The translations under genes and the position numbers were made by a program. Under the pieces are notes generated by a model. That model saw only the letters and a program-made list of their open reading frames with translations, did not search any database and was not told the origin of the DNA. From an uncultured bacterium (GTDB lineage: Bacteria > Oederibacteriota > PGYV01 > CAWJRG01), in NCBI GenBank assembly GCA_963845185.1, contig CAWJRG010000005.1, forward strand, positions 448,001 to 512,000: a stretch of 64,000 bases of DNA. The letters run 5' to 3'. How positions within the stretch are numbered: the first letter of the stretch is position 1; each line of letters begins with the position of its first letter. Shown here in pieces: positions 1 to 56,767 of this stretch.

Positions 1-1967
1 ATACTTTCGGGAAATACCGTAAAAAAAGTCCTTAAAATCATGCGGTTATCCAGCTTGGTTCCTCCGGGAAACCACATGCACATAACACCGCCCGGGGTCA
101 GGTGTTCTTTGCATAATTCAAGAAATTCACGTGTGTACAGGTTTACTGTACCGGCGCTGTAGATCGGTGGCGACGGATCTATGCTAATCATGTCATATTT
201 ATCCGACGAAAGCAGCAGAAAATTGCGCCCGTCTTCAACATTAAGATTTAGCTTCCCGTATTTTAAAATCTCTGCCGCGTTTTTGTGGTAATACCCGAAG
301 CATTTATATACCTCGGGTACAAGTTCTGAAATTGTTATATCAATATTGCCGTATGTTACTGCTGATTCAAGTATAGTTCCCATGCCGAAACATATTATAA
401 GCATTTTATCAGGTTTATCTGCGAATAATACGGGCAGATGAGCCATTAGTTTCGTCTCTGTGCACAAAGACGTTTGCCCCACGCCGTTGATCTCAAGCAC
501 TTTAGAATCGTTAAAGTAGCAGCTTGTCACCGTGCCCTGCACGCCTTCTTTGTTATAATATATTTCACTTTTGGGATATTTGCTTATTCTGTTCTTTAAC
601 ACGTCCAGAAATACGTCTTTGTTCAGTGCTCCCGCCATCAACAACACGATAATCACAGCAGCTGCCCCATATGCAAAAACGGATTTTTTCGTTTTATCCG
701 GCGCTATAAATAATAAACTGATCCCGACAACCATATTGACAGCCGCGAGCAGCATGATTGTCTTTGTGGACCCTATCAGGCTTATAAAAATAAAACCCGT
801 AACTATGGAGCCAAGCACATTTCCAGCTGTATTAAAACTGTAAATCGTACCTATGTCCCCGCCTATTTCGTCCTTGTTTCCGGCATAACACACGGCTGCC
901 ACAGGGAATATCATGCCGAAAATAAACGCTGTAGGAAAGACCAGGTATATCGGGGATAATAATCTCAAATACTTATTGATATCGAACAAAGGAAAAATAT
1001 ACAGGCTGATAAGAGAGACTATGCTTAATGCGAGTTGGAGTGTACCGAACATTATAAGCCGGTTGCCTTTCTTTCCAAGCATTTTGTTTGCAAATAGACT
1101 GCCTGATGCAATGCCCAAAAGAAATACCGCAAGCATCGCAGAAAAGGCATAAACCGAAACTTGAAGGTACAGAATTAACTGCCTTGTCCAGATCACTTCA
1201 TACGCAAGGGCTGTAAATCCGCTTATTAAAACAAAAATCAACACGGCAGTCCTTGTTTTGCCGGAATAAAGCGAATCAGGCTCTGATTTAGCCGTCATGC
1301 CGTCAACGCCAGCCTCCGTTCCTGCTCCGGACCACATAGTTTTTATACCGATAATCAAGACTGTTCCGGAAACCAGCAGGTTTACAGCTACGCCGAGCAA
1401 TATTGTCTTCCATTCTCCGAGTTTCCCGATTGTAATAAATCCGCTTAGGAGCACGCCAGTAACTGCCCCGAAAGTATTGAAACCATACAACAGGCTTAGA
1501 TTGTTGCCAAATAGCCTGTCTTTTTTAGTCAAATAACCCGTCAGAACCGGCAAAGTTCCGCCCATAAGCGTCGTTGGGATTAAGAGAGTTAAAAAAGACA
1601 CAAGGCATCTGAGCAGCATAATAACCGGCCTATTATGGTCGCTTAATTCGTATAGGCCTTTATACAGTGGCACCGAAAACTGAAAAAGGAAAGGCGTTAT
1701 CACTGCGGTTATGGCAATCAACATTTCAAGCAGCGCATACAATTTCAGCAGGCTTTTTAGCCTGTCGCTGAATTTGCCGAATATATAGCTACCTATGCCC
1801 AGCCCGGCCATAAAAGCCGCAATCGTAATCGATGTGGCGTATGTTGTCACGCCAAGTACCCGTGACAGCATCCTGAGCCATACAACTTTGTAAACAAGCC
1901 CGCTGATCCCGGATAGGAAAAATAACAAAATCAGTATCCTTTTTTCCTTCGAAAAAACCGTAAGCAT
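1..1967 (-). CDS. Fused MFS-like membrane domain / spermidine synthase-like methyltransferase (3' end runs off window)
   Basis: Manual translation from ATG 1967: MLTVFSKEKRILILLFFLSGISGLVYKVVWLRMLSRVLGVTTYATS...; later in the same frame KLMAHLP, ICFGMG, VEDGRNFLL, YDMISIDPSPP, NLYTREF. Not in the ORF track, consistent with no stop inside the window. Confidence 0.85.
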   Translation of the reverse strand, partial: MLTVFSKEKRILILLFFLSGISGLVYKVVWLRMLSRVLGVTTYATSITIAAFMAGLGIGSYIFGKFSDRLKSLLKLYALLEMLIAITAVITPFLFQFSVPLYKGLYELSDHNRPVIMLLRCLVSFLTLLIPTTLMGGTLPVLTGYLTKKDRLFGNNLSLLYGFNTFGAVTGVLLSGFITIGKLGEWKTILLGVAVNLLVSGTVLIIGIKTMWSGAGTEAGVDGMTAKSEPDSLYSGKTRTAVLIFVLISGFTALAYEVIWTRQLILYLQVSVYAFSAMLAVFLLGIASGSLFANKMLGKKGNRLIMFGTLQLALSIVSLISLYIFPLFDINKYLRLLSPIYLVFPTAFIFGMIFPVAAVCYAGNKDEIGGDIGTIYSFNTAGNVLGSIVTGFIFISLIGSTKTIMLLAAVNMVVGISLLFIAPDKTKKSVFAYGAAAVIIVLLMAGALNKDVFLDVLKNRISKYPKSEIYYNKEGVQGTVTSCYFNDSKVLEINGVGQTSLCTETKLMAHLPVLFADKPDKMLIICFGMGTILESAVTYGNIDITISELVPEVYKCFGYYHKNAAEILKYGKLNLNVEDGRNFLLLSSDKYDMISIDPSPPIYSAGTVNLYTREFLELCKEHLTPGGVMCMWFPGGTKLDNRMILRTFFTVFPES

Positions 1968-2180
1968 TCATCACCTCTTGTATATAATCCATTTTATTTT
2001 TCTAAAGTTTTCAGGGTAATATTGCCCTTATAATTAATAATGTTTATATATAATAGCTAAAAAATATCAAAAGTAAAGGCAAAAATCCGGTACTGTAAAT
2101 ACAAAATAACATTATCATATTTTTGAAAAAAAATTAAATTTGTTATTATTGAACCCCCCTCCTGTTTTTTTATGCTTGGA

Positions 2181-2429
2181 TTACAAATAAATAAATATGT
2201 TTTTCCCGTTGCCGTGCTTACCAACAACTCTTTTGCAGCCTTTTTGAATAAAAAATTCTTGCATATCGTAGGCTATTTCTTCTGAATTTGCTTCCCATAC
2301 ATACCATTCTCTCGGATTTCCGCGTTCTTTTTTCTTTTCTTCTGGTTTATCCGTAACCCCAATGGTCCATATCGGATAATTACCTTTGATAATGCCTTCT
2401 ATCAGCAAAATCAGCTGAAATTTTTCCAT
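2181..2429 (-). CDS. Small hypothetical protein
   Basis: ORF with GAGGTG RBS before ATG 2429 (MEKFQ...); WTIGVTD...EFFIQKGC pattern. Confidence 0.6.
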   Translation of the reverse strand: MEKFQLILLIEGIIKGNYPIWTIGVTDKPEEKKKERGNPREWYVWEANSEEIAYDMQEFFIQKGCKRVVGKHGNGKNIFIYL

Positions 2430-2745
2430 AAAGCACCTCAAAAATCCTTCACCACTATTATAATTATAATATATTTTATCTATTTTGTCAAGTATAATAG
2501 TAATAATTTAGTTAGTAAATTTTAAAATTTAAACTAATATTATCTGTTATGTAATAATACTAATTAATATAATATTGCATTTTATAGTATTCTATACGAA
2601 ATTTTTCGAAAGCATATAAATAAAAGTATTTTAGCATCATATCCTTCAGATATTATAATTCATTAAAATTTTAACACTTTATGCTTGTCAGCTTTTTCTC
2701 TTTCTAATATAATCATTTTGTTCATTTAATTATACGAGGATAAAA

Positions 2746-4152
2746 ATGAAAGATTTAACAAAAGGAAGTATTGTAAAAAATCTCATAGCATACGCTGCTC
2801 CGGCAGTATTAGCAGACTTTCTTCAGTCTCTATATAGCGCGATTGACGCTTTCTGGACCGGCAGACTGATAGGTGCAAAAGCTATTGCTGCAGTTTCCGC
2901 AAGCTTGCCGATAGTGTTTTTCCTGGTTTCCCTTTTGATTGGGCTCGGAGCTGCAACTGTCATAATGACAGGCCAGGCCTATGGAAAAAAAGACATGGAA
3001 CTTCTGTCAAAGATACTTGTTAATTCTTTTTTTACGATACTTGCGCTTTGCGCCATAGTTACAGTAGTTGGCGTTATTTTTGCCTTGCCTATACTTAAAT
3101 TTTTGCATACACCGGCTGATATTATAAACAGTGCTCATTTATTCATTATAATAATATTATATGGAACTGTGCTCATATTCGCCACGAACTGGTTTTCCTC
3201 GATACTGCGCGGCCTCGGTGATACAGTAACGCCCCTGATTTTACTAGCAATAGATGTAGGAATAAATATAGTTCTCGCGCCATTTTTAATAGCAGGCATG
3301 GGCCCATTTCCCAAAATGGGCATAGCTGGCTCTGCTGTCTCTACCCTCGTCGCAGGCCTGGTTATCACAATTATCTCGTTTATTTATTTAGGAAAAAAAT
3401 ACCCGTTTTTTAATGTGACAAAATGGAAATTTAAATTTAACTTTAAAATAATCACGGATATATTTGCGATCGGAATCCCGATTACCCTGCAGATGATGAT
3501 TGTTTCGACTGCCTCAATCATACTTGTATCGTTTGTAAACAGGTTTGGCTCTGATGTGGTTGCTGCATACGGCATAGGGCTCAGGATAGACCAGTTTTCA
3601 TTTATACCCGCAATGTCTCTCGGCGGCGCCGCGTCCGCCTTTGCCGCGCAGGCAATCGGCGCGAATAAAGAAAATATGCTGAAAGAAATCGTAAAATGGG
3701 TTGCTATTCTTTCGCTTGCATTTTCCCTTTTCTTTTTTGCTCTGATAAATATTTTTCCTTCAGCCATAACATCCATTTTTACCAACAGCCCAGGTGTGAT
3801 TTCAAGCGCATTTTATTATTTCAGGATAGATTCCTTTACTTATTTTGCTTTTGCTCTGCTTTTTACCTACCAGGGTATAATCAGGGGCGCTGGAAACACC
3901 CTGCCCTCTGCTCTAATTTCGCTGGTTTCCCTGCTTTTATTCAGGGCCGGCCTTGCATGGTTTTTAATAGAAAAAACTCATTTTGCGGAAAAAGGCATCT
4001 GGCTTGCCATGACAGCAAGTTCTTATCTTGCAATGCTGCTGAATTATTTTTATTACAGGTTTGGTAACTGGAAGGATAAGTTCCTGCTGGAAAACATCGA
4101 GGTAAAAAAGGAATGCCTTGACTGCCTGCCCGGCACCGAGCACAGGCGGTAA
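2746..4152 (+). CDS. MATE family efflux transporter
   Basis: MKDLTKGSI start, about 12 TM segments, LRGLGDTVTPL and RGAGNT motifs typical of MATE. Confidence 0.92.
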   Translation: MKDLTKGSIVKNLIAYAAPAVLADFLQSLYSAIDAFWTGRLIGAKAIAAVSASLPIVFFLVSLLIGLGAATVIMTGQAYGKKDMELLSKILVNSFFTILALCAIVTVVGVIFALPILKFLHTPADIINSAHLFIIIILYGTVLIFATNWFSSILRGLGDTVTPLILLAIDVGINIVLAPFLIAGMGPFPKMGIAGSAVSTLVAGLVITIISFIYLGKKYPFFNVTKWKFKFNFKIITDIFAIGIPITLQMMIVSTASIILVSFVNRFGSDVVAAYGIGLRIDQFSFIPAMSLGGAASAFAAQAIGANKENMLKEIVKWVAILSLAFSLFFFALINIFPSAITSIFTNSPGVISSAFYYFRIDSFTYFAFALLFTYQGIIRGAGNTLPSALISLVSLLLFRAGLAWFLIEKTHFAEKGIWLAMTASSYLAMLLNYFYYRFGNWKDKFLLENIEVKKECLDCLPGTEHRR

Positions 4153-4194
4153 AAATATTTAAGCAACATATTTCTTTGTTAATTTATGACTTAA

Positions 4195-5527
4195 CAGGCT
4201 GCTGAAAAAGTCAGTTTAAAAGTAATGCCAATGTGTTAAAATGGTAAAAATCATAAAACACGGAGGCTACACAAATGCGTGGAAATGAAACAAAACAGGG
4301 ATATATGTTCAGTTATCTATCGCCGGAATTTAGAGTTCCAAAAAACCATCCGCTCCGCAAGATAAAGAAAATGGCAGAAGAAGCGCTAAAAAGGATGTCG
4401 CCGCTCTTTGATAGAATATACAGTATCATAGGAAGGCCATCAATACCGCCGGAAACGCTATTGAAAGCGCAGCTTTTAATAGCGTTTTATTCGATAAGGT
4501 CGGATAGGCTGTTTTGTGAGAAAGCGGATTTGGATATATTATTCCGGTGGTTTTTGGATATGAATATGGAAGAAGAAATGTTTGACGCAAGCGTATTTTC
4601 CAAAAACAGGGAAAGATTAATGGAAAACGAGGTTGCTTATCGTTTTTTGAATGAAGTGATAAGAATAGCCCGGGAGAATGACCTGATGTCGGATGAACAT
4701 TTTACTGCCGACGGAACGCTGATAGAAGCATGGGCTTCAATGAAAAGTTTCGTGAAGAAAGACGGCGGAGACAAGCGAAAAGACGACGGAGATCCGGGTA
4801 ATCCATCGGTGGATTTTCATGGCGAGAAAAGGAAAAACGAGACGCATCAAAGCACAACGGATCCGGAAGCATTGTTAATGAAGAAGGCCAAAGGCAAAGA
4901 AGCAAAATTGAGCTTTTGTGAAACCGTATTAATGGAAAACCGTAACGGGCTCATAGTGGATGTGTCGCTGACACAGGCAAGAAAAGACGCGGAAACCAAA
5001 GAAACGCTGAGGATGTTAAGGAAAGAACGACGGCGAGGAAAAGGCAGTATAAAAACCATAGGCGGAGATAAAGGATTCTGTAATAATAAATTTGTCGGCA
5101 AGGTAAGAAAAATGAAAATAAAACCGCATATAGCGAAGATAGAAAAATGGAAAATATTCGGGCTTGACGGAAGAACCATAGGAAGCATCGGTTACGCGAT
5201 AAGCAGAGTGAAAAGAAAACTGGTTGAAGAGATATTTGGATGGAAGAAAACTGTTGGCGGAGCAAGAAAGACCAAACTTATAGGAGTAAAACGAAACCAG
5301 GAACAATCAAGTATTATATCGGTGGCGTATAATCTTCGGCGAATGGCCAGATTGATACCTGCAACATAGTGAAAAAATCGAGATATGAAAAACAGCGCAG
5401 AAAACATTAAAAGAAAAATAAGGAAATAGGAAAAGTTAAGGTAAAGTAATAGATGAAGGGTTGAAAAATTGAAAAAAATAGCGGCAGGAAAAGAAAAATT
5501 CTTAAAAAGTTATTTTTCAGCAGCCTG
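4195..5527 (+). mobile_element. IS5/IS1182-like insertion sequence, 1333 bp
   Basis: Perfect 15-bp terminal inverted repeats CAGGCTGCTGAAAAA (4195-4209) / TTTTTCAGCAGCCTG (5513-5527); TTAA duplicated at 4191-4194 and 5528-5531. Confidence 0.93.
4275..5369 (+). CDS. IS5-family DDE transposase
   Basis: MRG..Q..MFSY..PE.RVP..HPLR N-terminus, GRPSIPPE, DGTLIEAWAS, GDKGF, RKLVEEIFGW.K. Confidence 0.92.
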   Translation: MRGNETKQGYMFSYLSPEFRVPKNHPLRKIKKMAEEALKRMSPLFDRIYSIIGRPSIPPETLLKAQLLIAFYSIRSDRLFCEKADLDILFRWFLDMNMEEEMFDASVFSKNRERLMENEVAYRFLNEVIRIARENDLMSDEHFTADGTLIEAWASMKSFVKKDGGDKRKDDGDPGNPSVDFHGEKRKNETHQSTTDPEALLMKKAKGKEAKLSFCETVLMENRNGLIVDVSLTQARKDAETKETLRMLRKERRRGKGSIKTIGGDKGFCNNKFVGKVRKMKIKPHIAKIEKWKIFGLDGRTIGSIGYAISRVKRKLVEEIFGWKKTVGGARKTKLIGVKRNQEQSSIISVAYNLRRMARLIPAT

Positions 5528-6446
5528 TTAAATATTTTTTTCGTTCTTCAAAAAGTACTAACTGTTTTTCTTCTGGAATCAATTCATAATTGTGCTTTTT
5601 AATATGTGATTCAAAATTATAAACAAGAGCTTCGACAATAGAATTTCTATTTTCTATCTTGCCGCCCGAATGATAATAATGATTTTTTGTAACAATATTA
5701 AACTTTTTCCAATACTTTTTTATCATAGAATTTTCTCTGTAATCGTTATGATGCCATGTTGATAATATAAACTTTGCTTTTGTATTATTTAAAGCCTCAA
5801 ATAAATCATGTTCATCTTCGTCAGTCCAGCCGTTATAATAATCAACATAACGGCCATGATAAGGAGGATCACAATAAATAATATCATTAGCTGTTGCCGT
5901 TTCTATAGCTTTTCGAAAATCTTTACATATAAATTGCCATTTCACTGAAATTAGGCAGCCAATTTTCGATACTTGGTTAACAATTTTTGTTATATAGGAT
6001 TTACTAAAACGTTCCGGTTTTTTACAAAACGGAATGTTCCATTTGCCGCTTTTATTGAAACGTATCATTCCATTAAAACCAGCTCTTGATAAAAACAAAA
6101 AATCCAAGGGCTGAAAATTACTGTTGAATCTGTCCCTAATATATTTGTAGTGTTCATATCCCCGATCTCCTGAATGTTTTAATATATTTCCTTCTTTTTC
6201 AAGGTACTGTCTGACAATTATTGGTGTAATTTGATCGGTTTTTATAGCATTATAAAAATTGATTAAATGTGGATTAATATCAAAAAGTAAATTTTCTTTG
6301 AATCCTACATTAAATGCAACTACTCCCGTTCCCATAAATGGTTCTATCCAACGTCCGGTATTTTGCGGAATTAAAGCATTAATCCATATGACAAGCTTTG
6401 TTTTTATCCCTTGACTTTTGATAGGCGGTACTATTATTTTACCCAT
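5517..6446 (-). CDS. Dam-family DNA adenine methyltransferase, M.EcoRV-like (predicted GATATC)
   Basis: VPPIKSQGIKTKL, EPFMGTGVV, FNGMIRFN, YCDPPY, STWHHNDYREN closely match M.EcoRV as I recall it. Confidence 0.9.
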   Translation of the reverse strand: MGKIIVPPIKSQGIKTKLVIWINALIPQNTGRWIEPFMGTGVVAFNVGFKENLLFDINPHLINFYNAIKTDQITPIIVRQYLEKEGNILKHSGDRGYEHYKYIRDRFNSNFQPLDFLFLSRAGFNGMIRFNKSGKWNIPFCKKPERFSKSYITKIVNQVSKIGCLISVKWQFICKDFRKAIETATANDIIYCDPPYHGRYVDYYNGWTDEDEHDLFEALNNTKAKFILSTWHHNDYRENSMIKKYWKKFNIVTKNHYYHSGGKIENRNSIVEALVYNFESHIKKHNYELIPEEKQLVLFEERKKYLTGC

Positions 6447-7273
6447 CAATTTTCACCCGACCTTTTTGGAACTATTAAGGAAGTATTCCCTTTTCTATAT
6501 TTTACAAAATCCAACAAATTATTTATTTTTTTTACTTTCCCTGCTTTTTTGATGGCTATCTTATTAAAATTCATCCAGTAATCGTCAAACCAATTTTCAC
6601 CCAAACGTGAAAACATACCATTTTCGTTTATAATATCGCTTATTAAATTTATACTGCCAATATTTGCGGTGTTTCCACTACCTCCTTTATCGCTGGCAAT
6701 CTTCCATTTTTCAGCAATAAAGAATTGGAAATTTTTTACTACGGATGTAATCGATTGTAATTCATTGAGGTCGTGGGCTTTTGTTTCATTGATGCTTGAA
6801 CCGATTACTCTGTCATAAATAATTCCAAAACAAAAATGGCCCAAATATTCATCGTAAGGAAATTGAATGTTCTTTTTGCTGTTACGATTTATGAAATATT
6901 CTCCGTGGGAACCCAGTGTAAAGCCGTTGCACAATTTATTATTTTCCGGTTTTCGATAAGTTGTTTTAAAATCGACTGCGAATTTGATTTTACTATTATC
7001 CTTTTTTATAAAAGTAATATCTGGATAATAATTCTGATGGTCGGCCAATATGATACTATAACCAGCTTTCTCCGCAAAAGCCAATACTTTTGGAAATAAA
7101 TGTATTTCTAATATTTTTGATACTATTTTTGTATCTGAAGAAATTGTATAAACATTTTTAAAAATATCAATAAAACCTTTAACAGTCCATTGCCCATCTT
7201 CGGAACTAACATGGGTTGTTATTGTTTTTGTAAAATTGCTTAAGTTTTCTTTGAATTTTTGCTTTTCAGACAT
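6446..7273 (-). CDS. EcoRV-like type II restriction endonuclease
   Basis: QNYYPD...VDFKTTY (PD-D/ExK), FTLGS, KNIQFPYDEY, GSGNTANIGS recognition loop; GGAGG RBS before ATG 7273; adjacent to the methylase. Confidence 0.88.
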   Translation of the reverse strand: MSEKQKFKENLSNFTKTITTHVSSEDGQWTVKGFIDIFKNVYTISSDTKIVSKILEIHLFPKVLAFAEKAGYSIILADHQNYYPDITFIKKDNSKIKFAVDFKTTYRKPENNKLCNGFTLGSHGEYFINRNSKKNIQFPYDEYLGHFCFGIIYDRVIGSSINETKAHDLNELQSITSVVKNFQFFIAEKWKIASDKGGSGNTANIGSINLISDIINENGMFSRLGENWFDDYWMNFNKIAIKKAGKVKKINNLLDFVKYRKGNTSLIVPKRSGEN

Positions 7274-47978: not shown

Positions 47979-48004
47979 AGGTCAAATTCCATGCAATTTC
48001 CCCC

Positions 48005-48111
48005 TGTTAATTACTGCTGCAAAATTCGGAGCATGAGGACCAGGTATTTCGGAGCAAAAGGACCAGTCGTTTCGGCCGAAAAGGACCAGACATTTCGGTC
48101 CAAAAGGACCA
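48005..48111 (+). repeat. IS21 left end: terminal IR plus 4 repeats TTCGG-N7-GGACCA
   Basis: TTCGG at 48025, 48048, 48071 and 48094. Confidence 0.88.
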
Positions 48112-48212
48112 ACTTATCCACTTATTTCAGGATACTATAACGCAGCCTGAAATCCAAGCATAATCCTCAAAAACTGCCATACTGTGCCATTCTAAAATTA
48201 GGAGGCACACAG

Positions 48213-49796
48213 ATGGCACAAAAGAGGTTATGCATGAGAAAAAGCAAAGAGATTTTGAGGTTGAAGTACGAGTTAGGCAAGACAGAAAGAGAAATACGGG
48301 ACATATGCGGGCTGAAAAGCAAGACAACGGTCCACAGGTGCCTTGAAAGAGCCGGGAAGGCGGGTATAACATGGCCGTTGCCCGAAGGCATGACCGAGGA
48401 CGTGCTGGAGGCACAACTGTTTCCGGCCATACAGCCTTGCAAGGAATTCAAAAAAATCGCAATAGATTGCGCGCATGTTCACGAACAGATGCAGATGGAT
48501 AACGTAACCAAAAAACTCATTTGGGAAGAATATGTCGAATCAAATCCAAACAACCACTATGGATATACTCAATTCTGCCAATATTACAACAGATGGACAA
48601 ATAACCTGAATTTCAGCATGAAACAGGTATATAAGGCCGGGGAAAAAGTATTTGTGGATTTTGGCAGCGGGTTATCCGTAATCGATAAAGAGACCGGCGA
48701 GATAATGAAGACGCATGTGTTTGTAGCAGTGCTCGGTGCGTCAAAATATTCGTATGCGGAAGCGGTATTTAACCAGGACCTGCCGTCATGGATATTGGTA
48801 AACAGACATATGCTTGAATTTTTTGGATGCGTACCTCAGGTAATAATCCCGGATAATTTGAAGGCGGCAGTAGATAAAGCTGATTGGTATGAGCCGTTTA
48901 TTAACCGGTCATACGAAGAATTTGCCGGACATTACGGGACAAATATATTTCCAACAAGGCCCAGACAGCCCAGGGATAAAGCTCTTGTAGAAAATGGCGT
49001 CAGACTGGTCAAGCGGTGGATTCTGGCTAGGCTGCGGAACAGGATGTTTTTCAGTCTCGCAGAGTTAAATGCGGCAATACGCGAACTGCTTGAGAAGTTT
49101 AACGACAACATAATGAAAAAAGTCGGTAAATCAAGGAGAGAACTATTCCTCACGTTGGACAAACCCAATATGAATCCCCTGCCTGAACATCCTTTTGAAT
49201 ATGCGGAATGGAAAAAAGCCAGAGTTGGTTGTGATTACCACATATCTTTTGGGAAGCACATGTATTCCGTGCCGCATTATTTGAAAGGCAGCGAAATAGA
49301 CATAAGAGCGACAAGTTCAATCGTAGAAGTATATTTAAAGGGCAACCGGATATGCTCGCACAAAAGAAGTCACAAAGAACATGATTTTACCACGGTAAAA
49401 GAGCATATGCCGGAAAGACATCAGGCAGTAGCCGGTATAACCCCGCAAAGCCTATTGGATTGGGCTGAAAAAACCGGGCCCAATGTCCTAAGAATGGTAC
49501 AGACTAAACTCGATTCAAAAATGTTTTATGAACAGTCATACAGGAGCTGCCTTGGAATATTGAACCTTGCCCGTAAGTACGGGAATGAGCGCCTGGATAA
49601 GGCGTGTAAACGTGCCTTGCACTTCGGCACTATGTCCTACCCTAAAGTTTCAAGTATTTTAGAACAAAAACTTGAAGATCAGGAATATGAAAAGTTGTAT
49701 ATAACAAGGCCTCACTTGAACCACGAAAATATCCGCGGCGGTCAGGAATTTGCAGACAGACTTCTTGAAAAACAAAAAACGGAGGAAATACAATGA
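48213..49796 (+). CDS. istA: IS21 transposase IstA
   Basis: N-terminal HTH, GEKVFVDF, PDNLKAAV, PRDKALVE. Confidence 0.95.
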   Translation: MAQKRLCMRKSKEILRLKYELGKTEREIRDICGLKSKTTVHRCLERAGKAGITWPLPEGMTEDVLEAQLFPAIQPCKEFKKIAIDCAHVHEQMQMDNVTKKLIWEEYVESNPNNHYGYTQFCQYYNRWTNNLNFSMKQVYKAGEKVFVDFGSGLSVIDKETGEIMKTHVFVAVLGASKYSYAEAVFNQDLPSWILVNRHMLEFFGCVPQVIIPDNLKAAVDKADWYEPFINRSYEEFAGHYGTNIFPTRPRQPRDKALVENGVRLVKRWILARLRNRMFFSLAELNAAIRELLEKFNDNIMKKVGKSRRELFLTLDKPNMNPLPEHPFEYAEWKKARVGCDYHISFGKHMYSVPHYLKGSEIDIRATSSIVEVYLKGNRICSHKRSHKEHDFTTVKEHMPERHQAVAGITPQSLLDWAEKTGPNVLRMVQTKLDSKMFYEQSYRSCLGILNLARKYGNERLDKACKRALHFGTMSYPKVSSILEQKLEDQEYEKLYITRPHLNHENIRGGQEFADRLLEKQKTEEIQ

Positions 49797-50533
49797 GCAT
49801 AGAACAGACAATAGACAAGCTTATTGAAATGAAGTTGACAGGTATGTCACAGTCCTACAAAGAAAGAAGGATAAAACCGGATCACAAAGACCTCTCGTTT
49901 GACGAGTTTTTTGGGCTTGTGGTAGATGACGAGCACATATACAGAAAAAACAAACGACTTAAAAAACTTTTAAAAAAAGCCAAATTTAAATTCGCTTCTG
50001 CCTGCCTTGAAGATATTGATTACAGGCAGCAAAGAGGCATGCTAAAAACGCAGGTGGTAAATCTTCAAAATCCATCGTGGCTGGAAAATCACCAGAATAT
50101 TCTCATTACTGGCCCTACAGGCATCGGAAAAACATATCTTGCCTGCGCGTTTGGTACCTGGGCATGTAGAAATGGCTTTACAGTCTATTATTCCCGCTGG
50201 TCAAGGCTTCTCGCTGATATACACGCTTCCCGCAGCGATGAGAGTTATCTTAAGTATCTTCGAAAACTCGCTAAGATAGATTTGCTTATAATCGATGATT
50301 TTGGAATGAATTCTCTTTCCGAGAATAACAGAGATGATTTTTTTGAAATTATTGAAGAAAGGTACTTGATCGGCTCTACTATTATTACAAGCCAGTTGCC
50401 TATCAAAAATTGGCACGAATTCATGGGCGAGGCTACAATCGCAGACGCAGTAATGGACAGGCTTCTTCAGGTTTCGTATAGATTCGAACTAAAAGGAGCT
50501 TCCATGCGGAAACAACAAAAAAACATCGAATAA
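49793..50533 (+). CDS. istB: IS21 helper ATPase IstB
   Basis: GPTGIGKTYLA, LLIIDDFG, IITSQLP, ADAVMDRL, GASMRK. Confidence 0.95.
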   Translation: MSIEQTIDKLIEMKLTGMSQSYKERRIKPDHKDLSFDEFFGLVVDDEHIYRKNKRLKKLLKKAKFKFASACLEDIDYRQQRGMLKTQVVNLQNPSWLENHQNILITGPTGIGKTYLACAFGTWACRNGFTVYYSRWSRLLADIHASRSDESYLKYLRKLAKIDLLIIDDFGMNSLSENNRDDFFEIIEERYLIGSTIITSQLPIKNWHEFMGEATIADAVMDRLLQVSYRFELKGASMRKQQKNIE

Positions 50534-50645
50534 AGCATTTGGTTTTATCGGCGGTTATTAAAATCTTGATAAGCGCAAATGAAAGTAATATAATAATATT
50601 ACTGAATTAGTTGTTTATTTTAAATAAAATCGCGAGGTGTTCAGA

Positions 50646-51059
50646 ATGCCTGAATTATTAAGATTTGGAGTTTCATTGGACAGCCACCTTCTTAAAAAAT
50701 TTGATAACCACGTTAAAAATAACAAATATCCAACAAGGTCAAAAGCCATAGCCGATTTGATAAGAAAGGTATTTGTGGAACAAGAATGGGAGGATGGCAA
50801 AAATGTAGCTGGAGCCATAATAATTGTTTATGACCATCACAAGAGAGATCTAGTAAATAAGTTGATTAACACACAACACGATTTTCAGGACATTATAATA
50901 GCCTCACAGCATGTTCATCTTGATCACAACAATTGTCTCGAAGTGGTCGTTGTAAAGGGGAAAACGTCAAAAATTCGTGAGCTGGCGTCGATTTTAAAGT
51001 CCGCAAAAGGAGTAAAACACGCAGCTTTATCCGCCGCCACAACTGGTAAAAATTTTTAA
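50646..51059 (+). CDS. nikR: Nickel-responsive regulator NikR
   Basis: RHH RFGVSLD, RSKAIADLIR, YDHH, HVHLDHNNCLE nickel ligands. Confidence 0.95.
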   Translation: MPELLRFGVSLDSHLLKKFDNHVKNNKYPTRSKAIADLIRKVFVEQEWEDGKNVAGAIIIVYDHHKRDLVNKLINTQHDFQDIIIASQHVHLDHNNCLEVVVVKGKTSKIRELASILKSAKGVKHAALSAATTGKNF

Positions 51060-51113
51060 TTCCATGTCAGCAATTCTATACTTATAATAATTAAACAATG
51101 TGGAAAAATCCTG

Positions 51114-51163
51114 TTGACATCTGGCTTCTATTCGTGCTACATTTTTTATAAACGTGGCACGAA
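51114..51163 (+). promoter_or_regulatory. Promoter with overlapping putative NikR operator
   Basis: TTGACA (51114) with TACATT (51138); inverted repeat TTCGTGCTAC-N13-GTGGCACGAA (51131-51163). Confidence 0.7.
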
Positions 51164-51175
51164 AGGAGCAATGGT

Positions 51176-51865
51176 ATGAATAAAGAAGGGTTAATATTAG
51201 CTTTGTTTTTTGTTCTTTTCGTCGTGGATAATGTATTTGCCTCAAGACCGCTTTCTACCGACGACGCGTACACAATCGAAAACGGCAAGACCGAGATAGA
51301 GCTGGGCTATGATTTTGTAGGAGGAACGGCTGGAGAAGATAATACACATATGGCCGGCATCCAGGTAGGACACGGCATTACGGAAAAGATGGACATAAAG
51401 GTCGTATTCCCCTATTCCGTGAGCCCAGCAAGAGGCGCGGAAGGTGTTTTAATCGGCTTAAAGCTGACGGTTTTAAGTGAAGCCGAAAATATACCCAGCG
51501 CTGCGGTGAGCGTTTTTACCGAGCCGGGGCAGCCGGAATACTCGGTAAACGGCATAATCTCAAAAACGCTGGGTTCTGTCAGCCTGTACCTGAATTTTGG
51601 CTATGAATCAACTGGTGTTCCGGGTGAGCAGGGAGGATATACATGTTCGATAGCCGGGGATTACAATATAACCGAAAATATCTCGATCGGAGCGGAAATA
51701 ATTGACTCAACGGAAGAAAAGTTTATTCATCATAATGTTACGCCGTTTATAGGCGCACGTTTTTCAGTGGCAGAATGGATCACGATAGATGCAGGAACAG
51801 GAATTAACTTTAGCAAAGAATCTCGATTAGTTCATGTGACATCTGGATTGACGTTAAAAATATAA
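51176..51865 (+). CDS. Putative outer-membrane beta-barrel transporter (MetA-pathway-like)
   Basis: Signal peptide then RPLSTDDA...G..EIE; C-terminal GLTLKI strand. Confidence 0.7.
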   Translation: MNKEGLILALFFVLFVVDNVFASRPLSTDDAYTIENGKTEIELGYDFVGGTAGEDNTHMAGIQVGHGITEKMDIKVVFPYSVSPARGAEGVLIGLKLTVLSEAENIPSAAVSVFTEPGQPEYSVNGIISKTLGSVSLYLNFGYESTGVPGEQGGYTCSIAGDYNITENISIGAEIIDSTEEKFIHHNVTPFIGARFSVAEWITIDAGTGINFSKESRLVHVTSGLTLKI

Positions 51866-51881
51866 TTAAAAGGAGGAATAT

Positions 51882-52568
51882 ATGCACATACCTGATGGTT
51901 ATCTCGGCCCACCTACCTGTGCCGTAGCTTTTGCGGCTATGGTACCTATTTGGACGGTTGCCGTAAATAAGGTTAGGAAAACGCTCAAGACAAAACAGGT
52001 CCCTTTACTTGCATTAGGAGCGGCGTTTAGTTTTGTTATAATGATGTTCAATGTCCCTATACCTGGAGGTACGACCGGTCATGCTGTAGGCGGTGTTATC
52101 ATCGCAATACTGCTTGGCCCATGGGCTGCGTGCATAGCTATTACCGTAGCGCTCGTGATACAAGCGTTGCTTTTTGGTGACGGTGGAATCACAGCATTGG
52201 GCGCAAACTGTTTTAATATGGCTTTTGTCATTCCATTTACTGGCTACTATCTGTATAAACTTTTTGCTGGAAAGTCAAAAATTGGCTCAATGCGGCAAAT
52301 AATATCAGCTGGGGCCGCAGGATACCTAGGAATAAACCTTGCGGCTTTTTGTGCAGGAGTGGAATTCGGTTTACAACCTATTTTTCATCACACAGTATCC
52401 GGCCAATCTTTGTATTGTCCTTACGGTTTGAACGTGGCGGTACCAGCAATGTTGCTTGAGCACATAATACTTTTCGGCTGGGTGGAAGCAATCGTGACGG
52501 CGTTGGTGCTTGTTTACATCGGAAAACAAATGCCCGAGCTATTACAGAACGGGGGTGCAGATAAATGA
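51882..52568 (+). CDS. nikM: ECF nickel transporter S component NikM/CbiM
   Basis: MHIPDGYL N-terminus (Ni-type), GGTTGH, QALLFGDGG. Confidence 0.92.
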   Translation: MHIPDGYLGPPTCAVAFAAMVPIWTVAVNKVRKTLKTKQVPLLALGAAFSFVIMMFNVPIPGGTTGHAVGGVIIAILLGPWAACIAITVALVIQALLFGDGGITALGANCFNMAFVIPFTGYYLYKLFAGKSKIGSMRQIISAGAAGYLGINLAAFCAGVEFGLQPIFHHTVSGQSLYCPYGLNVAVPAMLLEHIILFGWVEAIVTALVLVYIGKQMPELLQNGGADK

Positions 52569-52903
52569 AGCCAACGATAAAATTGTGGATAGGACTAGCA
52601 GTGTTGGCAATCCTGTCACCGCTCGGATTGCTGCTGCCGTTATTTTTTAAGGCCGGGGCTGCGTGGGGCGAGTGGGGCACTGATGAAATAAAACAAATTG
52701 CAGGCTATGTTCCAGAGAAACTGAAAAAATTATCGGAATTATGGAAAGCTCCAATGCCTGATTACTCTTTTGCGGGCTGGGAGAATAAAAACATGGAGCA
52801 TTTGAGCTTTGCTTATATTTGTTCGGCAATTTTAGGCATAATAGTAATTGTTGGGATATCTTTTATTATAGGCAAGCTGCTTGTAAAAAAAGAGGAAAAA
52901 TAA
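52565..52903 (+). CDS. PDGLE/NikN-like auxiliary membrane subunit
   Basis: LSPLGL...AWGEWG...APMPDY plus C-terminal TM. Confidence 0.85.
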   Translation: MKPTIKLWIGLAVLAILSPLGLLLPLFFKAGAAWGEWGTDEIKQIAGYVPEKLKKLSELWKAPMPDYSFAGWENKNMEHLSFAYICSAILGIIVIVGISFIIGKLLVKKEEK

Positions 52904-52904
52904 A

Positions 52905-53756
52905 TTGAAACGAAACAGTTTTATTGAAAAAACAATCCTCGCTGCGGTATCTATTATAAAAGAGTCTGTTTTTTCAGAAGAAATAGCATCCAAAATAGGT
53001 TTTCTGCAGGGACTGGATGCCAGATTTAAGGTTTTGTCTATTTTTGTTTTCGTGTTCTGCGCTCTTTTTCTGAGACATGAGCAATTGCTTCTAATACTTT
53101 ATGTATTATGTCTTGCGCTTACGGTTTTATCCGGCGTAAGTCTTATTTTTTTCTTTAAACGTACTCTGCTGTTCATACCCCTTTTTTCATTTTTAATAGT
53201 ATTCCCTTCAATATTCGGTTTTTTTACGCCGGGACAAGTAATATGGGAGGGACATATCGGCAGTGTTGTGTTTTCAATAACCAAACAGGGGCTAAATGGC
53301 GCTGTATTAATTATAACGCGTGTAACGGTTTCGGTATCCCTTATAATCTTACTCAGCCTTACAACCCGACATTTTGAATTGCTTAAGACGCTTAGGACGT
53401 TCGGAATACCGGATATTTTTGTAATGGTGGCCGGAATGTGTTACCGCTACATATACCTTTTCGCTGGAATTGTCGAGAACACTTTTCTTGCTATAAAGAG
53501 TCGAACCGGAGGAATCATAAAGACAGGGCACGGCCAAAAAATAACAGCCTGGAATATAGCAATGCTGTGGCGTAGGTCATATATATTAAATGAAAATGTA
53601 TACGACGCTATGCGCTCACGCGGTTTTACGGGTGAACCGGTATCGTTAAATGCGTCTATGGCAAAAATGCGGGATTTTATCTGGTTTGCATTTTTTATTA
53701 CTGCGGCAGCATCTTTTATTGCTCTTGATTATTTTATTAAAGGCTGGAAAACATAA
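52905..53756 (+). CDS. cbiQ: ECF T component NikQ/CbiQ
   Basis: DARFK, YRYI, SR, AMRSRGF. Confidence 0.9.
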   Translation: MKRNSFIEKTILAAVSIIKESVFSEEIASKIGFLQGLDARFKVLSIFVFVFCALFLRHEQLLLILYVLCLALTVLSGVSLIFFFKRTLLFIPLFSFLIVFPSIFGFFTPGQVIWEGHIGSVVFSITKQGLNGAVLIITRVTVSVSLIILLSLTTRHFELLKTLRTFGIPDIFVMVAGMCYRYIYLFAGIVENTFLAIKSRTGGIIKTGHGQKITAWNIAMLWRRSYILNENVYDAMRSRGFTGEPVSLNASMAKMRDFIWFAFFITAAASFIALDYFIKGWKT

Positions 53757-54583
53757 TGAATGAAAATATTTTTGAACTAAAAAATATTGAGTATACTTAT
53801 CCTGGTAAAGTGCCAGCCCTAGCAGGCATCCGTCTTGATATAAAAAAAGGTGAACGTATAGCGCTAATAGGCGCAAACGGATCGGGGAAGTCAACTTTAC
53901 TTACTATGCTGAATGGTCTTATTTATCCGAGTAGTGGAACAATTGTTTCTTTCGATAGAGAACTTTCAGAAGCAGCGTTTAACGACATGGATTTTGTAAA
54001 ATTTTTCAGGGCAAAAACAGGTTTTGTATTCCAAAATCCCGAAGTACAACTTTTCTGCCCTACCGTGAGAGAAGATATAGCTTTTGGTCCGCTCTGTATG
54101 GGAATGCCTGCTGAAGAAGTCCGGAAACAAACGGAAGAAACAGCAGCAGAACTCGGTATAACAGAACTGCTCGACAGGCCGCCGCATCGTTTAAGCATAG
54201 GCGAAAAAAAGAAAGTGGCGTTAGCCACGGTGCTGGTGATTAACCCGGATGTCATGCTTCTTGATGAGCCAACAGCTGGGCTTGACCCGCTCACTACTCA
54301 ACATATAGTGGACATACTAGCCAAGGCTTCCACGGAAGGAAAAACAATAATAACAGCAACACACGACCTTCATATAGTTGAGGAGATATCTGACAGAGTG
54401 ATAATTCTATCAAGGCATGGTAACATAGCTGCCGAAGGTAAACCTGACGTACTTTTGAATAACTTTAAATTGTTGGAAGAAAACAATCTCGTTCATGCAC
54501 ATGGACATAAGCATGCGGATGGTACTACAATGCACGTACATCCGCATCAGCATTTACATCACAAACACGAACACAAAGAGTGA
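53756..54583 (+). CDS. cbiO: ECF ATPase NikO/CbiO with His-rich tail
   Basis: GANGSGKST, FQNPEVQLF, LSIGEKK, LDEPT; tail HAHGHKH...HVHPHQHLHHKHEH. Confidence 0.92.
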   Translation: MNENIFELKNIEYTYPGKVPALAGIRLDIKKGERIALIGANGSGKSTLLTMLNGLIYPSSGTIVSFDRELSEAAFNDMDFVKFFRAKTGFVFQNPEVQLFCPTVREDIAFGPLCMGMPAEEVRKQTEETAAELGITELLDRPPHRLSIGEKKKVALATVLVINPDVMLLDEPTAGLDPLTTQHIVDILAKASTEGKTIITATHDLHIVEEISDRVIILSRHGNIAAEGKPDVLLNNFKLLEENNLVHAHGHKHADGTTMHVHPHQHLHHKHEHKE

Positions 54584-54687
54584 GTGGACGCCTTAAGCGG
54601 ATTTTTCAGATTTCCGGACAGATAAAAAGCTTGAAAGAAGCAAAATTTTAAGCTATTATTCACATTGGATTAAGCTTGGATGTTGCG

Positions 54688-54770
54688 TGGTTCTTTTAAA
54701 ACGAATTGTTTGGTCCTCATGAAACGAAAACCTTGGTCCTTTTGACCGAAATTTGCACTGCGTTAATACA
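54688..54770 (-). repeat. IS21 right end: 3 inverted repeats plus terminal IR
   Basis: TGGT(C/T)C at 54688, 54711 and 54734; reverse complement begins TGTATTAACGCAGTGCAAATTTCGG. Confidence 0.85.
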
Positions 54771-54878
54771 GGCAATATATTGCGTTTTGCTGGAAAATAC
54801 AGGGATTTATTGACGAATAGCTGCAGGTAAGGCAAAACCTTTGACAAGACTCTTCGGCACGCTGTCTTTGGCGTGGAT

Positions 54879-55485: not shown

Positions 55486-56622
55486 TTATTGCGAGTGCCA
55501 CACATCGTTTACCTGGGTGCCGTATTGACCGCCTGCTTCAAGCCCGCCTATGACCCACATTTCATTATTAAACACAACGCTGCTGTGGAATTCCCTTGCA
55601 GGAAAAGCAGTGTATTGATTGACAATGCTCCAGTTCATACCGTCCATCGAGCCCCAAATATCATCGAGCAGATTTCCGTGATAGTCGCTGCCTGCTATGA
55701 CGTACATTATGTTGTTATATAAAACCGCGGAATGGCCGTCCCTCGGCGAAAACGCTGCTGCTTCTGTTCCAAGCGACCAGGATGTCCCGTCAATTGAATA
55801 AAACGTGTCATTCATATCATAACCATAATTATTGACGCCCCCAAGAATCCACAATTGATTTGAGGTAGTAATACTCGCGAACTCGTCCCTTGTGTCAAAC
55901 GCTGCCGAAGCCGCGGCCTCGGTCCATGTTATGCCGTCTGACGAATACCATGAATCATTCAAGAAGTTCCCTGACTCTTCGGATCCGCCTATTACCCACA
56001 TATAATTATTAAATACCACACTGCAATGGCCGTAGCGCGGATTAAATGCCGCGCCGCCTGTGGCTTGCGCCCAGTTTTGCCCGTCCGACGAATACCAGAC
56101 ATCGTTTAATGCAGCGCCGTTATCGTTGTCTAAAAAGACATCCCATCCGCCAATAACCCACATTAAATTATTGTATACCACACTGCTGTGGCTGTCCCTC
56201 GCGCTGAAAGCCGCGCCGCCCGTGGCATCATTCCAGTTTACGCCGTCGCTGGAATACCATACGTCGTTATAATCCCCATCATTGTTGTTAAATCCACCTA
56301 TTACCCACATTTCATTATTAAACACTACGCTTGTGTGGCTGTCCCTTGGGCTAAAAGCCGCATTGCCAGTGGCTACCACCCAGATGCCACCAGGATAAGG
56401 TGTCGGAGAAACAGTGAAGGTCGGAGAGATTGTATAAGTTGGAGATATGGTGGGTGTTGTAGTCTTTGTCCATAATGTAGCTATTGCGGTCAGCGTCAAA
56501 TTAGGAGTCGGCACAAAATGGCCTTGCAATCCCGGCCCCGAAGGTGTTGTTTTTTGGCTGCATGAAAATGCGATCAATGCTAAAACCAAAAAAATCAAAA
56601 TAAAAATATAATATTTTCTCAT
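55486..56622 (-). CDS. Lipoprotein with Thr/Pro linker and Kelch-like beta-propeller repeats
   Basis: AFSC lipobox; six repeats FSPRD.H.SVVFNN.MWVIGG...NDVWYSSDG..W. Confidence 0.82.
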   Translation of the reverse strand: MRKYYIFILIFLVLALIAFSCSQKTTPSGPGLQGHFVPTPNLTLTAIATLWTKTTTPTISPTYTISPTFTVSPTPYPGGIWVVATGNAAFSPRDSHTSVVFNNEMWVIGGFNNNDGDYNDVWYSSDGVNWNDATGGAAFSARDSHSSVVYNNLMWVIGGWDVFLDNDNGAALNDVWYSSDGQNWAQATGGAAFNPRYGHCSVVFNNYMWVIGGSEESGNFLNDSWYSSDGITWTEAAASAAFDTRDEFASITTSNQLWILGGVNNYGYDMNDTFYSIDGTSWSLGTEAAAFSPRDGHSAVLYNNIMYVIAGSDYHGNLLDDIWGSMDGMNWSIVNQYTAFPAREFHSSVVFNNEMWVIGGLEAGGQYGTQVNDVWHSQ

Positions 56623-56767
56623 TTTTACCTCCAAGCACGAGTTTATTTTGGAAACTTTAAATAATATGCTGATTTATATAATATTTGACGAATCCAAAAG
56701 GTCAAAAGTTTACTGGTTTAACACGCCATCGCATGCTTTAAATCCGGTTCTTCGGCAGTCTGCCAAT

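Follow-up and report, generated by a model that had tools for sequence, protein, structure and literature searches.

An IS21-family element around a probable nickel-uptake operon

Whether a nickel-uptake operon lies beside an insertion sequence (IS) or is carried between its ends is the question raised by a locus of the host genome (G000), which we analysed in a 64-kb stretch of contig C5 (G000:C5:448001-512000; called the window below, its own numbering being used wherever no contig is given). Here, the transposition genes istA and istB are followed by nikR, a gene for a predicted outer-membrane beta-barrel, nikM, a gene for a PDGLE-domain membrane protein, nikQ, and nikO, and all eight genes are found in this order inside one pair of ends. 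Based on the comparison of its genomic copies, the element spans positions 48018 (TGCAAAATTCGG...) to 54757 (...CCGAAATTTGCA), i.e., 6,740 bp, and very probably represents a non-composite "transporter IS" or unit transposon of the IS21 family that encloses a nickel-uptake cargo. Its ends and transposition genes are as follows.

48014..48017: left copy of the target-site duplication, CTGC (the flank ...TTACTGC precedes TGCAAAA; the right flank starts with CTGCG)
48018..48111, forward strand: left terminal inverted repeat (5'-TG terminus, then four 18-nt TTCGG-N7-GGACCA repeats)
48213..49796, forward strand: istA, 527-aa DDE transposase (PF00665, PF22483; NF033546 253.2 bits, cut-off 160)
49793..50533, forward strand: istB, 246-aa AAA+ helper (PF01695 E 3.5e-68; NF038214 242.3 bits, cut-off 200)
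54688..54757, reverse strand: right terminal inverted repeat (terminus ...TTTGCA-3', preceded by three repeats with a 23-nt phase)
54758..54761: right copy of the target-site duplication, CTGC

The element is bounded by TG...CA termini (TGCAAAA on the left, TTTGCA on the right), and the distance from the terminus to the first TTCGG repeat is 7 nt on both sides. The left repeats start at 48025, 48048, 48071, and 48094, displaying a period of 23 nt, and are the sole matches without mismatch to TTCGG-N7-GGACCA in the window. On the right, three inverted repeats (54688-54705, 54711-54728, and 54734-54751) were detected behind the nik genes with 2, 1, and 2 mismatches, respectively; overall, the inverted-repeat arms comprise 57 nt with 72% complementarity. 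A motif scan revealed no end-type repeat between the istB stop codon and nikR, i.e., in the 100 nt after istB. These repeats on both sides, as well as the missing right end behind istB, had already been reported in a preliminary description of the locus, and all of them reappeared in our scans. The termini, however, had been placed there at 48005 and 54770 (TGT...ACA, with the first TTCGG 20 nt in) and had to be moved 13 nt inwards on each side. Since the genomic copies share only 48018-54757, TGT...ACA belongs to a partly palindromic target. The left terminus is also the exact start of an IS of about 94% identity on a contig from a peat metagenome (X4), where it is preceded by unrelated sequence, and the right terminus was fixed by the copy on contig C1, in which the flank differs after ...TTTGCA.

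The cargo consists of six genes and fills the 4.15 kb from the istB stop codon to the right-end repeats. Regarding base composition, the GC content amounts to 42.4% in the IS part, 40.9% in the cargo, and 43.6-45.4% in the flanks. Apart from that, TTTGCA at the right terminus was scored as a -35 element, and no convincing -10 element for a junction promoter was seen in the left end.

Genomic copies and evidence for movement

The element was detected at three loci of the assembly, namely on C5, on C6 together with C1, and on C8, with 99.5-99.9% identity:

C5:496018-502757: complete copy
C8:39827-46420: element positions 1-6594, then contig end
C6:142562-147387: element positions 1-4828
C1:334805-331421, minus strand: element positions 3350-6740

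C6 and C1 both end inside the element, overlap by 1.5 kb, and have TTTAC in common, which ends the left flank on C6 and starts the right flank on C1; therefore, we regard the two pieces as one copy. Target duplications thus read CTGC at C5 and TTTAC at C6/C1, and CTATG is probably that of the C8 copy. The left flank on C8 ends with CTATG, and the contig, which stops 146 nt before the right terminus, opens with an A and then CTATG; this fits a circular molecule closed via the missing right-end piece of the element. Target duplications of IS21 elements range from 4 to 8 bp. In all copies, the divergence of the flanks falls exactly at TGCAAAA and TTTGCA, and each of the six flanks occurs only once in the assembly. 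Compared to the C5 copy, the others differ at 4, 10, and 16 positions, mostly near contig ends, but copy-specific single-nucleotide polymorphisms were also identified away from them (element positions 2354, 3332, 3340, 6283, and 6373). Because the unit stands at three loci with unlike flanks and 4-5-bp target duplications, we conclude that it transposes as a whole. This agrees with the preliminary description, which had proposed a non-composite cargo transposon moving as one unit and had suggested looking for it at other loci of the genome.

An ordinary IS21 element next to a nik operon already resident in the chromosome, the right-end repeats being a stray remnant of another copy and the nik genes immobile, would be a rival explanation, and it draws on two observations: relatives of the IS are ordinary elements of 2.4-2.8 kb, and the four transporter proteins are 66-76% identical to those of G017, a genome of the same order, which is about the value for AlaS (64%), so that the cargo may be native. 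With both junctions of a 6.74-kb block found at three loci between unrelated flanks and target duplications, this explanation can nevertheless hardly be correct. Furthermore, no right end follows any istB of the genome, and neither NikM nor NikR is encoded outside the copies. The nik cargo lies behind istA at all three genomic IstA matches, as far as the contigs extend, and the genome revealed no copy ending just after istB and no IS-only copy; according to the preliminary description, copies ending there would have refuted the cargo transposon. The same was said there of a nik operon that is syntenic and vertically inherited in relatives without the IS. The operon is no such locus: among the relatives surveyed (24 genomes of the host order, 99 genomes of the phylum, public contigs, and a large protein collection), only three of the 24 genomes of the order harbored a NikM homolog, and in G017, the one close case, it is located on a contig other than that of alaS-recX.

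Alternatively, the additional copies might have arisen by segmental duplication, as assembly chimeras, or from a mixture of strains instead of by transposition of the unit. The contigs C8, C6, and C1 indeed end within the element, and the start of C5 recurs on C2 at 96.8% identity. On the other hand, an assembler is expected to break contigs in a repeat of 6.7 kb, homology ends exactly at TG and CA in every copy beside short direct repeats, the polymorphisms away from contig ends are copy-specific, and a strain mixture would still need the unit to have been inserted at different sites. Altogether, we consider such an origin very improbable.

Several points weigh against a mobile nickel-uptake unit within one cell and are collected here. 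The joining of C6 and C1 rests on a repeat of 5 nt and the closure of C8 on 6 nt. As C2:10031-14822 overlaps C5:1-4791 at 96.8%, the assembly contains either redundancy or strain heterogeneity, and the three insertions could stem from different strains of one population and not from one cell; even so, strain mixing would leave three insertions of the whole unit. Among the contigs of four runs, i.e., at contig level only, neither a circle or tandem junction nor an empty-site allele was found; in run X2, both flanks were present at 100% identity, with no contig spanning the site. The genomes compared include none of the host's family or genus. As for the cargo, nikO had its best matches among models of energy-coupling factor (ECF) ATPases, yet below their curated cut-offs, and both NikR operators and a specificity for nickel rather than cobalt are features that we infer from sequence motifs and gene neighborhood, as detailed below.

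The C8 contig comprises 46.4 kb with a GC content of 39.9% and looks like a plasmid. It encodes a RepA-family initiator (PF10134), two ParA/ParB pairs, and a TraG/TrwB type IV coupling protein, and further a type I-C cas operon, a tyrosine recombinase, Fic, RadC, a serpin, and IS3- and IS4-type transposases. The copy on this plasmid-like contig is thus placed where exit from the cell would be possible.

With respect to the insertion sites, insertion points near the top of hairpin-forming palindromes were noticed at two of the three reconstructed empty sites (z -1.4 and -2.1), namely at 48000-48017 with 54758-54775 of the window and at C6:142540-142561 with C1:331380-331420, the latter being terminator-like; the third site was without one. 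A preference for hairpin targets is not claimed, three sites being too few. A gene with Kelch repeats (55486-56634) adjoins the element on the right, and a piece of about 55 nt from it recurs at 79-89% identity in several places of C5 and C10, presumably in paralogous Kelch-repeat genes.

Transposition genes and membership in the IS21 family

In an alignment with the IstA protein of IS5376 (8b4h), the element's IstA has kept D, D, and E in the VDW, FDN, and VE columns, which we take to be the catalytic ones. The istA gene is open and 100% identical in all three copies, and the start of istB overlaps its end by 4 nt. A second in-frame Met is present at codon 8 of IstA (window 48213-48236). According to a study on IS21, that element makes a shorter "cointegrase" without the first eight residues via an internal start (PMC10122671), and a corresponding form of IstA may be produced here as well.

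An IstA-type DDE transposase, IstB directly downstream, TG...CA ends with multiple repeats, and a short target duplication place the element in the IS21 family. Owing to its six additional genes, it departs from a classical IS with istA and istB only. Nor does it have the make-up of a composite transposon, as each copy harbors one istAB pair and one left end and has no internal ends. To find the whole unit in three copies with differing flanks and duplications is what is expected of a transporter IS or unit transposon.

A composite of the form IS-nik-IS that has decayed by losing most of its second IS, and that has become immobile or depends on help for its movement, could plausibly have led to the structure seen now. 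We nevertheless regard it as a very unlikely description of the element, as only a single istAB pair is present per copy, and the near-identical copies with intact, identical istA genes point to recent movement by the element's own enzymes. In addition, the stretch between nikO and the right-end repeats (54584-54690) revealed no trace of a capture event: local alignments with the istB 3' ends of the element, of G022, and of G048 were no better than those of shuffled sequences, and 86 of 300 shuffles reached the score, so that an apparent likeness in this stretch is due to chance.

Following the IS21 model system, IstA would bind the phased repeats at both ends of the transporter IS and synapse them, IstB would pick the target, and the whole unit would be inserted with a duplication of 4-5 bp. 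We infer that the element is currently active in transposition.

The probable nickel-uptake cargo

The six cargo genes and the promoter-like sites in front of them are located as follows.

50566..50602, forward strand: promoter-like TTGATA-17-TATAAT upstream of nikR (consensus scan, 11/12 matches)
50637..51059, forward strand: nikR, 140-aa nickel-responsive repressor (PF08753 E 1.1e-31, 109 bits versus 22; NF003381 171.8 bits, cut-off 105)
51114..51160, forward strand: promoter-like TTGACA-18-TACATT before the barrel gene (consensus scan)
51176..51865, forward strand: barrel gene, 229 aa with signal peptide, COG4313/PF13557-like, predicted 12-strand outer-membrane beta-barrel
51882..52568, forward strand: nikM, CbiM-family S component with the N-terminus MHIPDGYL (PF01891 E 6.4e-63; best solved relative 4m58, E 2.8e-78)
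52565..52903, forward strand: gene for a 112-aa PDGLE-domain membrane protein (PF13190 E 1.2e-10), a partner of NikM in NikN/NikL position
52905..53756, forward strand: nikQ, CbiQ, ECF T component (PF02361; TIGR02454 135 bits, cut-off 111.8)
53756..54583, forward strand: nikO, ECF ATPase (PF00005; histidine-rich C-terminal tail ...HAHGHKH...HVHPHQHLHHKHEHKE)

With a CbiM/NikM protein, a small partner, CbiQ, and an ATP-binding cassette ATPase in one operon, the cargo has the make-up of a NikMNQO importer of the ECF type. The best solved relative of NikM, 4m58, is presumably the nickel-bound structure of NikM2, and the 112-aa PDGLE protein matches the C-terminal part of a fused 323-aa CbiM model (NF005598). 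Regarding the metal, the adjacent nikR, the lack of a cobalamin riboswitch, and the histidine-rich tail of NikO speak for nickel, but NCBIfam names the S component CbiM. The Rfam scan of the element resulted in no B12 riboswitch and no other match.

The 229-aa barrel protein has no Pfam match of its own, even at E 10. It belongs to a family of proteins of about 220 aa with 271 representatives at E<=1e-3, and a PF13557 match was detected in 16 of its 61 aligned relatives. Its AlphaFold2 model (predicted local distance difference test score 91.1) displays 12 strands, and a Foldseek search with this model revealed FapF (5o68, E 3e-8), a COG4313 channel (4rl8, E 1.4e-6, template modelling score 0.65), and KdgM (4fqe).

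Two sites in front of the cargo genes may be involved in regulation. A palindrome, GTAATAT-N4-ATATTAC (50585-50602), covers the -10 region of the promoter-like site of nikR, and an inverted repeat, GTGCTAC-N13-GTGGCAC (51134-51160), overlaps that of the barrel gene; the latter pattern occurs once in the window, with 0.03 occurrences expected. As we assume it to resemble the published NikR box, the repeat at 51134-51160 is a candidate NikR operator. The preliminary description had called the operon self-regulated and had assigned an outer-membrane channel to it; what stands behind these two statements are NikR-box-like sites and a predicted 12-strand barrel, so that both are kept here as suggestions. 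At plentiful nickel, NikR would probably repress its own promoter and that of the operon barrel-nikM-PDGLE-nikQ-nikO, the barrel would let the metal through the outer membrane, and the NikM(N)QO pump would import it.

Host context and ancestry of the cargo

All matches of the host genome to PF01891 (CbiM/NikM) and PF08753 (NikR) fall into the copies of the element, and no member of PF03824 or PF04955 (NiCoT and HupE/UreJ families) was found in this genome, which is 99.4% complete. The host, which possesses nickel enzymes, thus appears to have no NikM-type importer besides that of the element: two genes for [NiFe]-hydrogenase large subunits are located on C9, perhaps a third one on C11, and larB-larC are present, followed by a gene for a GAF-domain protein and not by nik genes. 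The [NiFe] hydrogenases and the LarC pathway would be the beneficiaries of the cargo.

In G017, the NikM homolog is part of a lar cluster (G017:C4, L021 7496-13860) in which a DUF5777 barrel gene, larE, larB, larC, nikM, a PDGLE gene, nikQ, and nikO follow each other. This linkage to lar speaks for nickel as the metal of the transporter type. Since the transporter of the element is about as distant from that of G017 as AlaS is, the cargo may have originated in the host lineage. The DUF5777 barrel of G017 and the barrel of the element revealed no sequence similarity to each other.

Related IS21 elements

Related IS21 elements, with IstA proteins 33-66% identical to that of the present one, are ordinary ISs of 2.4-2.8 kb. 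The closest IS in the order was found in G022 (istB 74% identical at the nucleotide level, IstA 49%); its three 23-nt-phased right repeats end about 122 nt past the istB stop codon. Right after this IS end (G022:C128, L010 1881-2260), a unit of about 134 nt with a GC-rich hairpin is repeated in tandem about three times. In the phylum, right repeats were located 62-298 nt past istB at 16 of the 20 loci, a count that includes several copies of one IS in G076, resulting in ISs of 2.46-2.80 kb. Concerning the other four, L107 is ordinary by eye, the contig of L109 is too short, L108 revealed no inverted repeats, and L106 is an exception carrying a kinase gene. On public contigs (IstA 32-48%), the inverted repeats are 2.37-2.69 kb apart at 20 of the 28 testable loci, and five of the remaining eight displayed ordinary spacing at laxer repeat settings or in a separate repeat search; the other three are L043, in which no inverted repeats were found, L053, and L058.

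Among the full-length IstA proteins of the protein collection, the nearest ones share 61-66% identity and are mostly encoded on contigs of 2.0-3.2 kb; the best identities amount to 52% in genome contigs and 42-48% in metagenome contigs. In the peat metagenome X4, two contigs of an IS of about 93% identity depart from the sequence of the element at 50533 and 50524, i.e., at the istB stop codon; these variants may be IS-only or may bear another cargo. A solo left-end remnant of 54 bp, consisting of the terminus and two repeats with 98% identity, was observed in a genome from another family of the order (G021:C15, L020 5209-5262), which indicates that the IS or close kin was present there too.

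The exception in the phylum, G048:C71:8385-12025 (L106 1886-5526), is an IS21-family element of 3,641 bp with istA, istB, a gene for a 345-aa protein of the aminoglycoside phosphotransferase/choline-kinase family, and right-end repeats. Its termini are TGCAAATTCCGA.../...TCGGAATTTGTA, its ends share a perfect inverted match of 31 nt, and it is flanked by a 4-bp repeat, TTGA. Like the present element, it stems from the same phylum, has a passenger between istB and the right-end repeats, and possesses a similar terminus; in contrast, it carries one kinase gene instead of six genes, and its IstA and IstB are 44% and 60% identical, respectively. Because of these values, we regard it as a different IS with an independent capture. 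It is a probable second IS21 element with a passenger in this slot, and no more than probable since it is single-copy and lies within a polysaccharide gene cluster, between DegT and sugar-transferase genes.

Against this background, we consider it possible, though still short of probable, that, in this IS21 clade, the short spacer from the istB stop codon to the right repeats serves as a slot for cargo and has repeatedly received it, namely the nik operon here and the kinase gene in G048. The resulting unit transposons would spread nutrient acquisition, not resistance, in and between sediment bacteria, also via the copy on the plasmid-like contig, and the element would now be the host's sole nickel supplier for its hydrogenases.

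Comparison with known systems

According to the IS21 study, members of the family contain two open reading frames flanked by terminal inverted repeats with multiple repeats (L1/L2 and R1/R2), produce target duplications of 5 bp, and have a -35 box in the right terminal inverted repeat, and IstA and IstB are related to MuA/MuB and TnsB/TnsC (PMC10122671). A review on IS6 mentions passenger-bearing members in "a number of IS families" and a one-gene example from IS6 (PMC7986276). In the literature searched, which did not extend to ISfinder and TnCentral, no IS21 element with passenger genes was found, in line with the preliminary description, whose author knew of no described example, and nothing relevant resulted from a search that combined nikR and nickel uptake with mobile elements.

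For transposases under the control of an AAA+ partner, IS21 serves as the present structural model, and the papers cited here define it by two genes enclosed by two ends. A recently active natural IS21 element that moves 6.7 kb, a six-gene operon included, indicates that IstA and IstB can cope with large cargo, and the idea of the transporter IS is thereby extended to this family. The cargo itself is unusual, as it would serve the uptake of a metal, equipped with a sensor of its own and a predicted outer-membrane channel, and not metal or drug resistance; a core nutritional function would thus be carried on a mobile element, with one copy on a plasmid-like replicon.

Compared to IS21 and IS5376, the element has the same DDE-type IstA with an overlapping AAA+ IstB, TG...CA termini, phased direct repeats, and a duplication of 4-5 bp, but is larger, at 6.74 kb against about 2-2.8 kb, and harbors six genes not connected with transposition behind istB and before the right end. 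Furthermore, it displays four left and three right repeats, whereas L1/L2 and R1/R2 are given for IS21 (PMC10122671). With transporter ISs of other families it has in common the IS ends, the transposase, and passengers inside one moving unit; its large, six-gene operon, to all appearances regulated, differs from the one-gene IS6 example (PMC7986276). Tn7, Tn552, and Mu-type elements likewise move cargo by a related two-protein machinery acting on multi-repeat ends, but the present element lacks TnsA, TnsD/E, a resolvase, and other extra transposition genes, and its IstA and IstB score above the cut-offs of the IS21-specific NCBIfam models. As for the cargo, its CbiM-family S component starting with MH, its small partner, CbiQ, the ATPase, and the linked NikR correspond to NikMNQO and Lar(MN)QO importers with NikR; what sets it apart from these systems is the location of the operon inside a transposon and a PF13557-like barrel in place of the DUF5777 barrel of G017.

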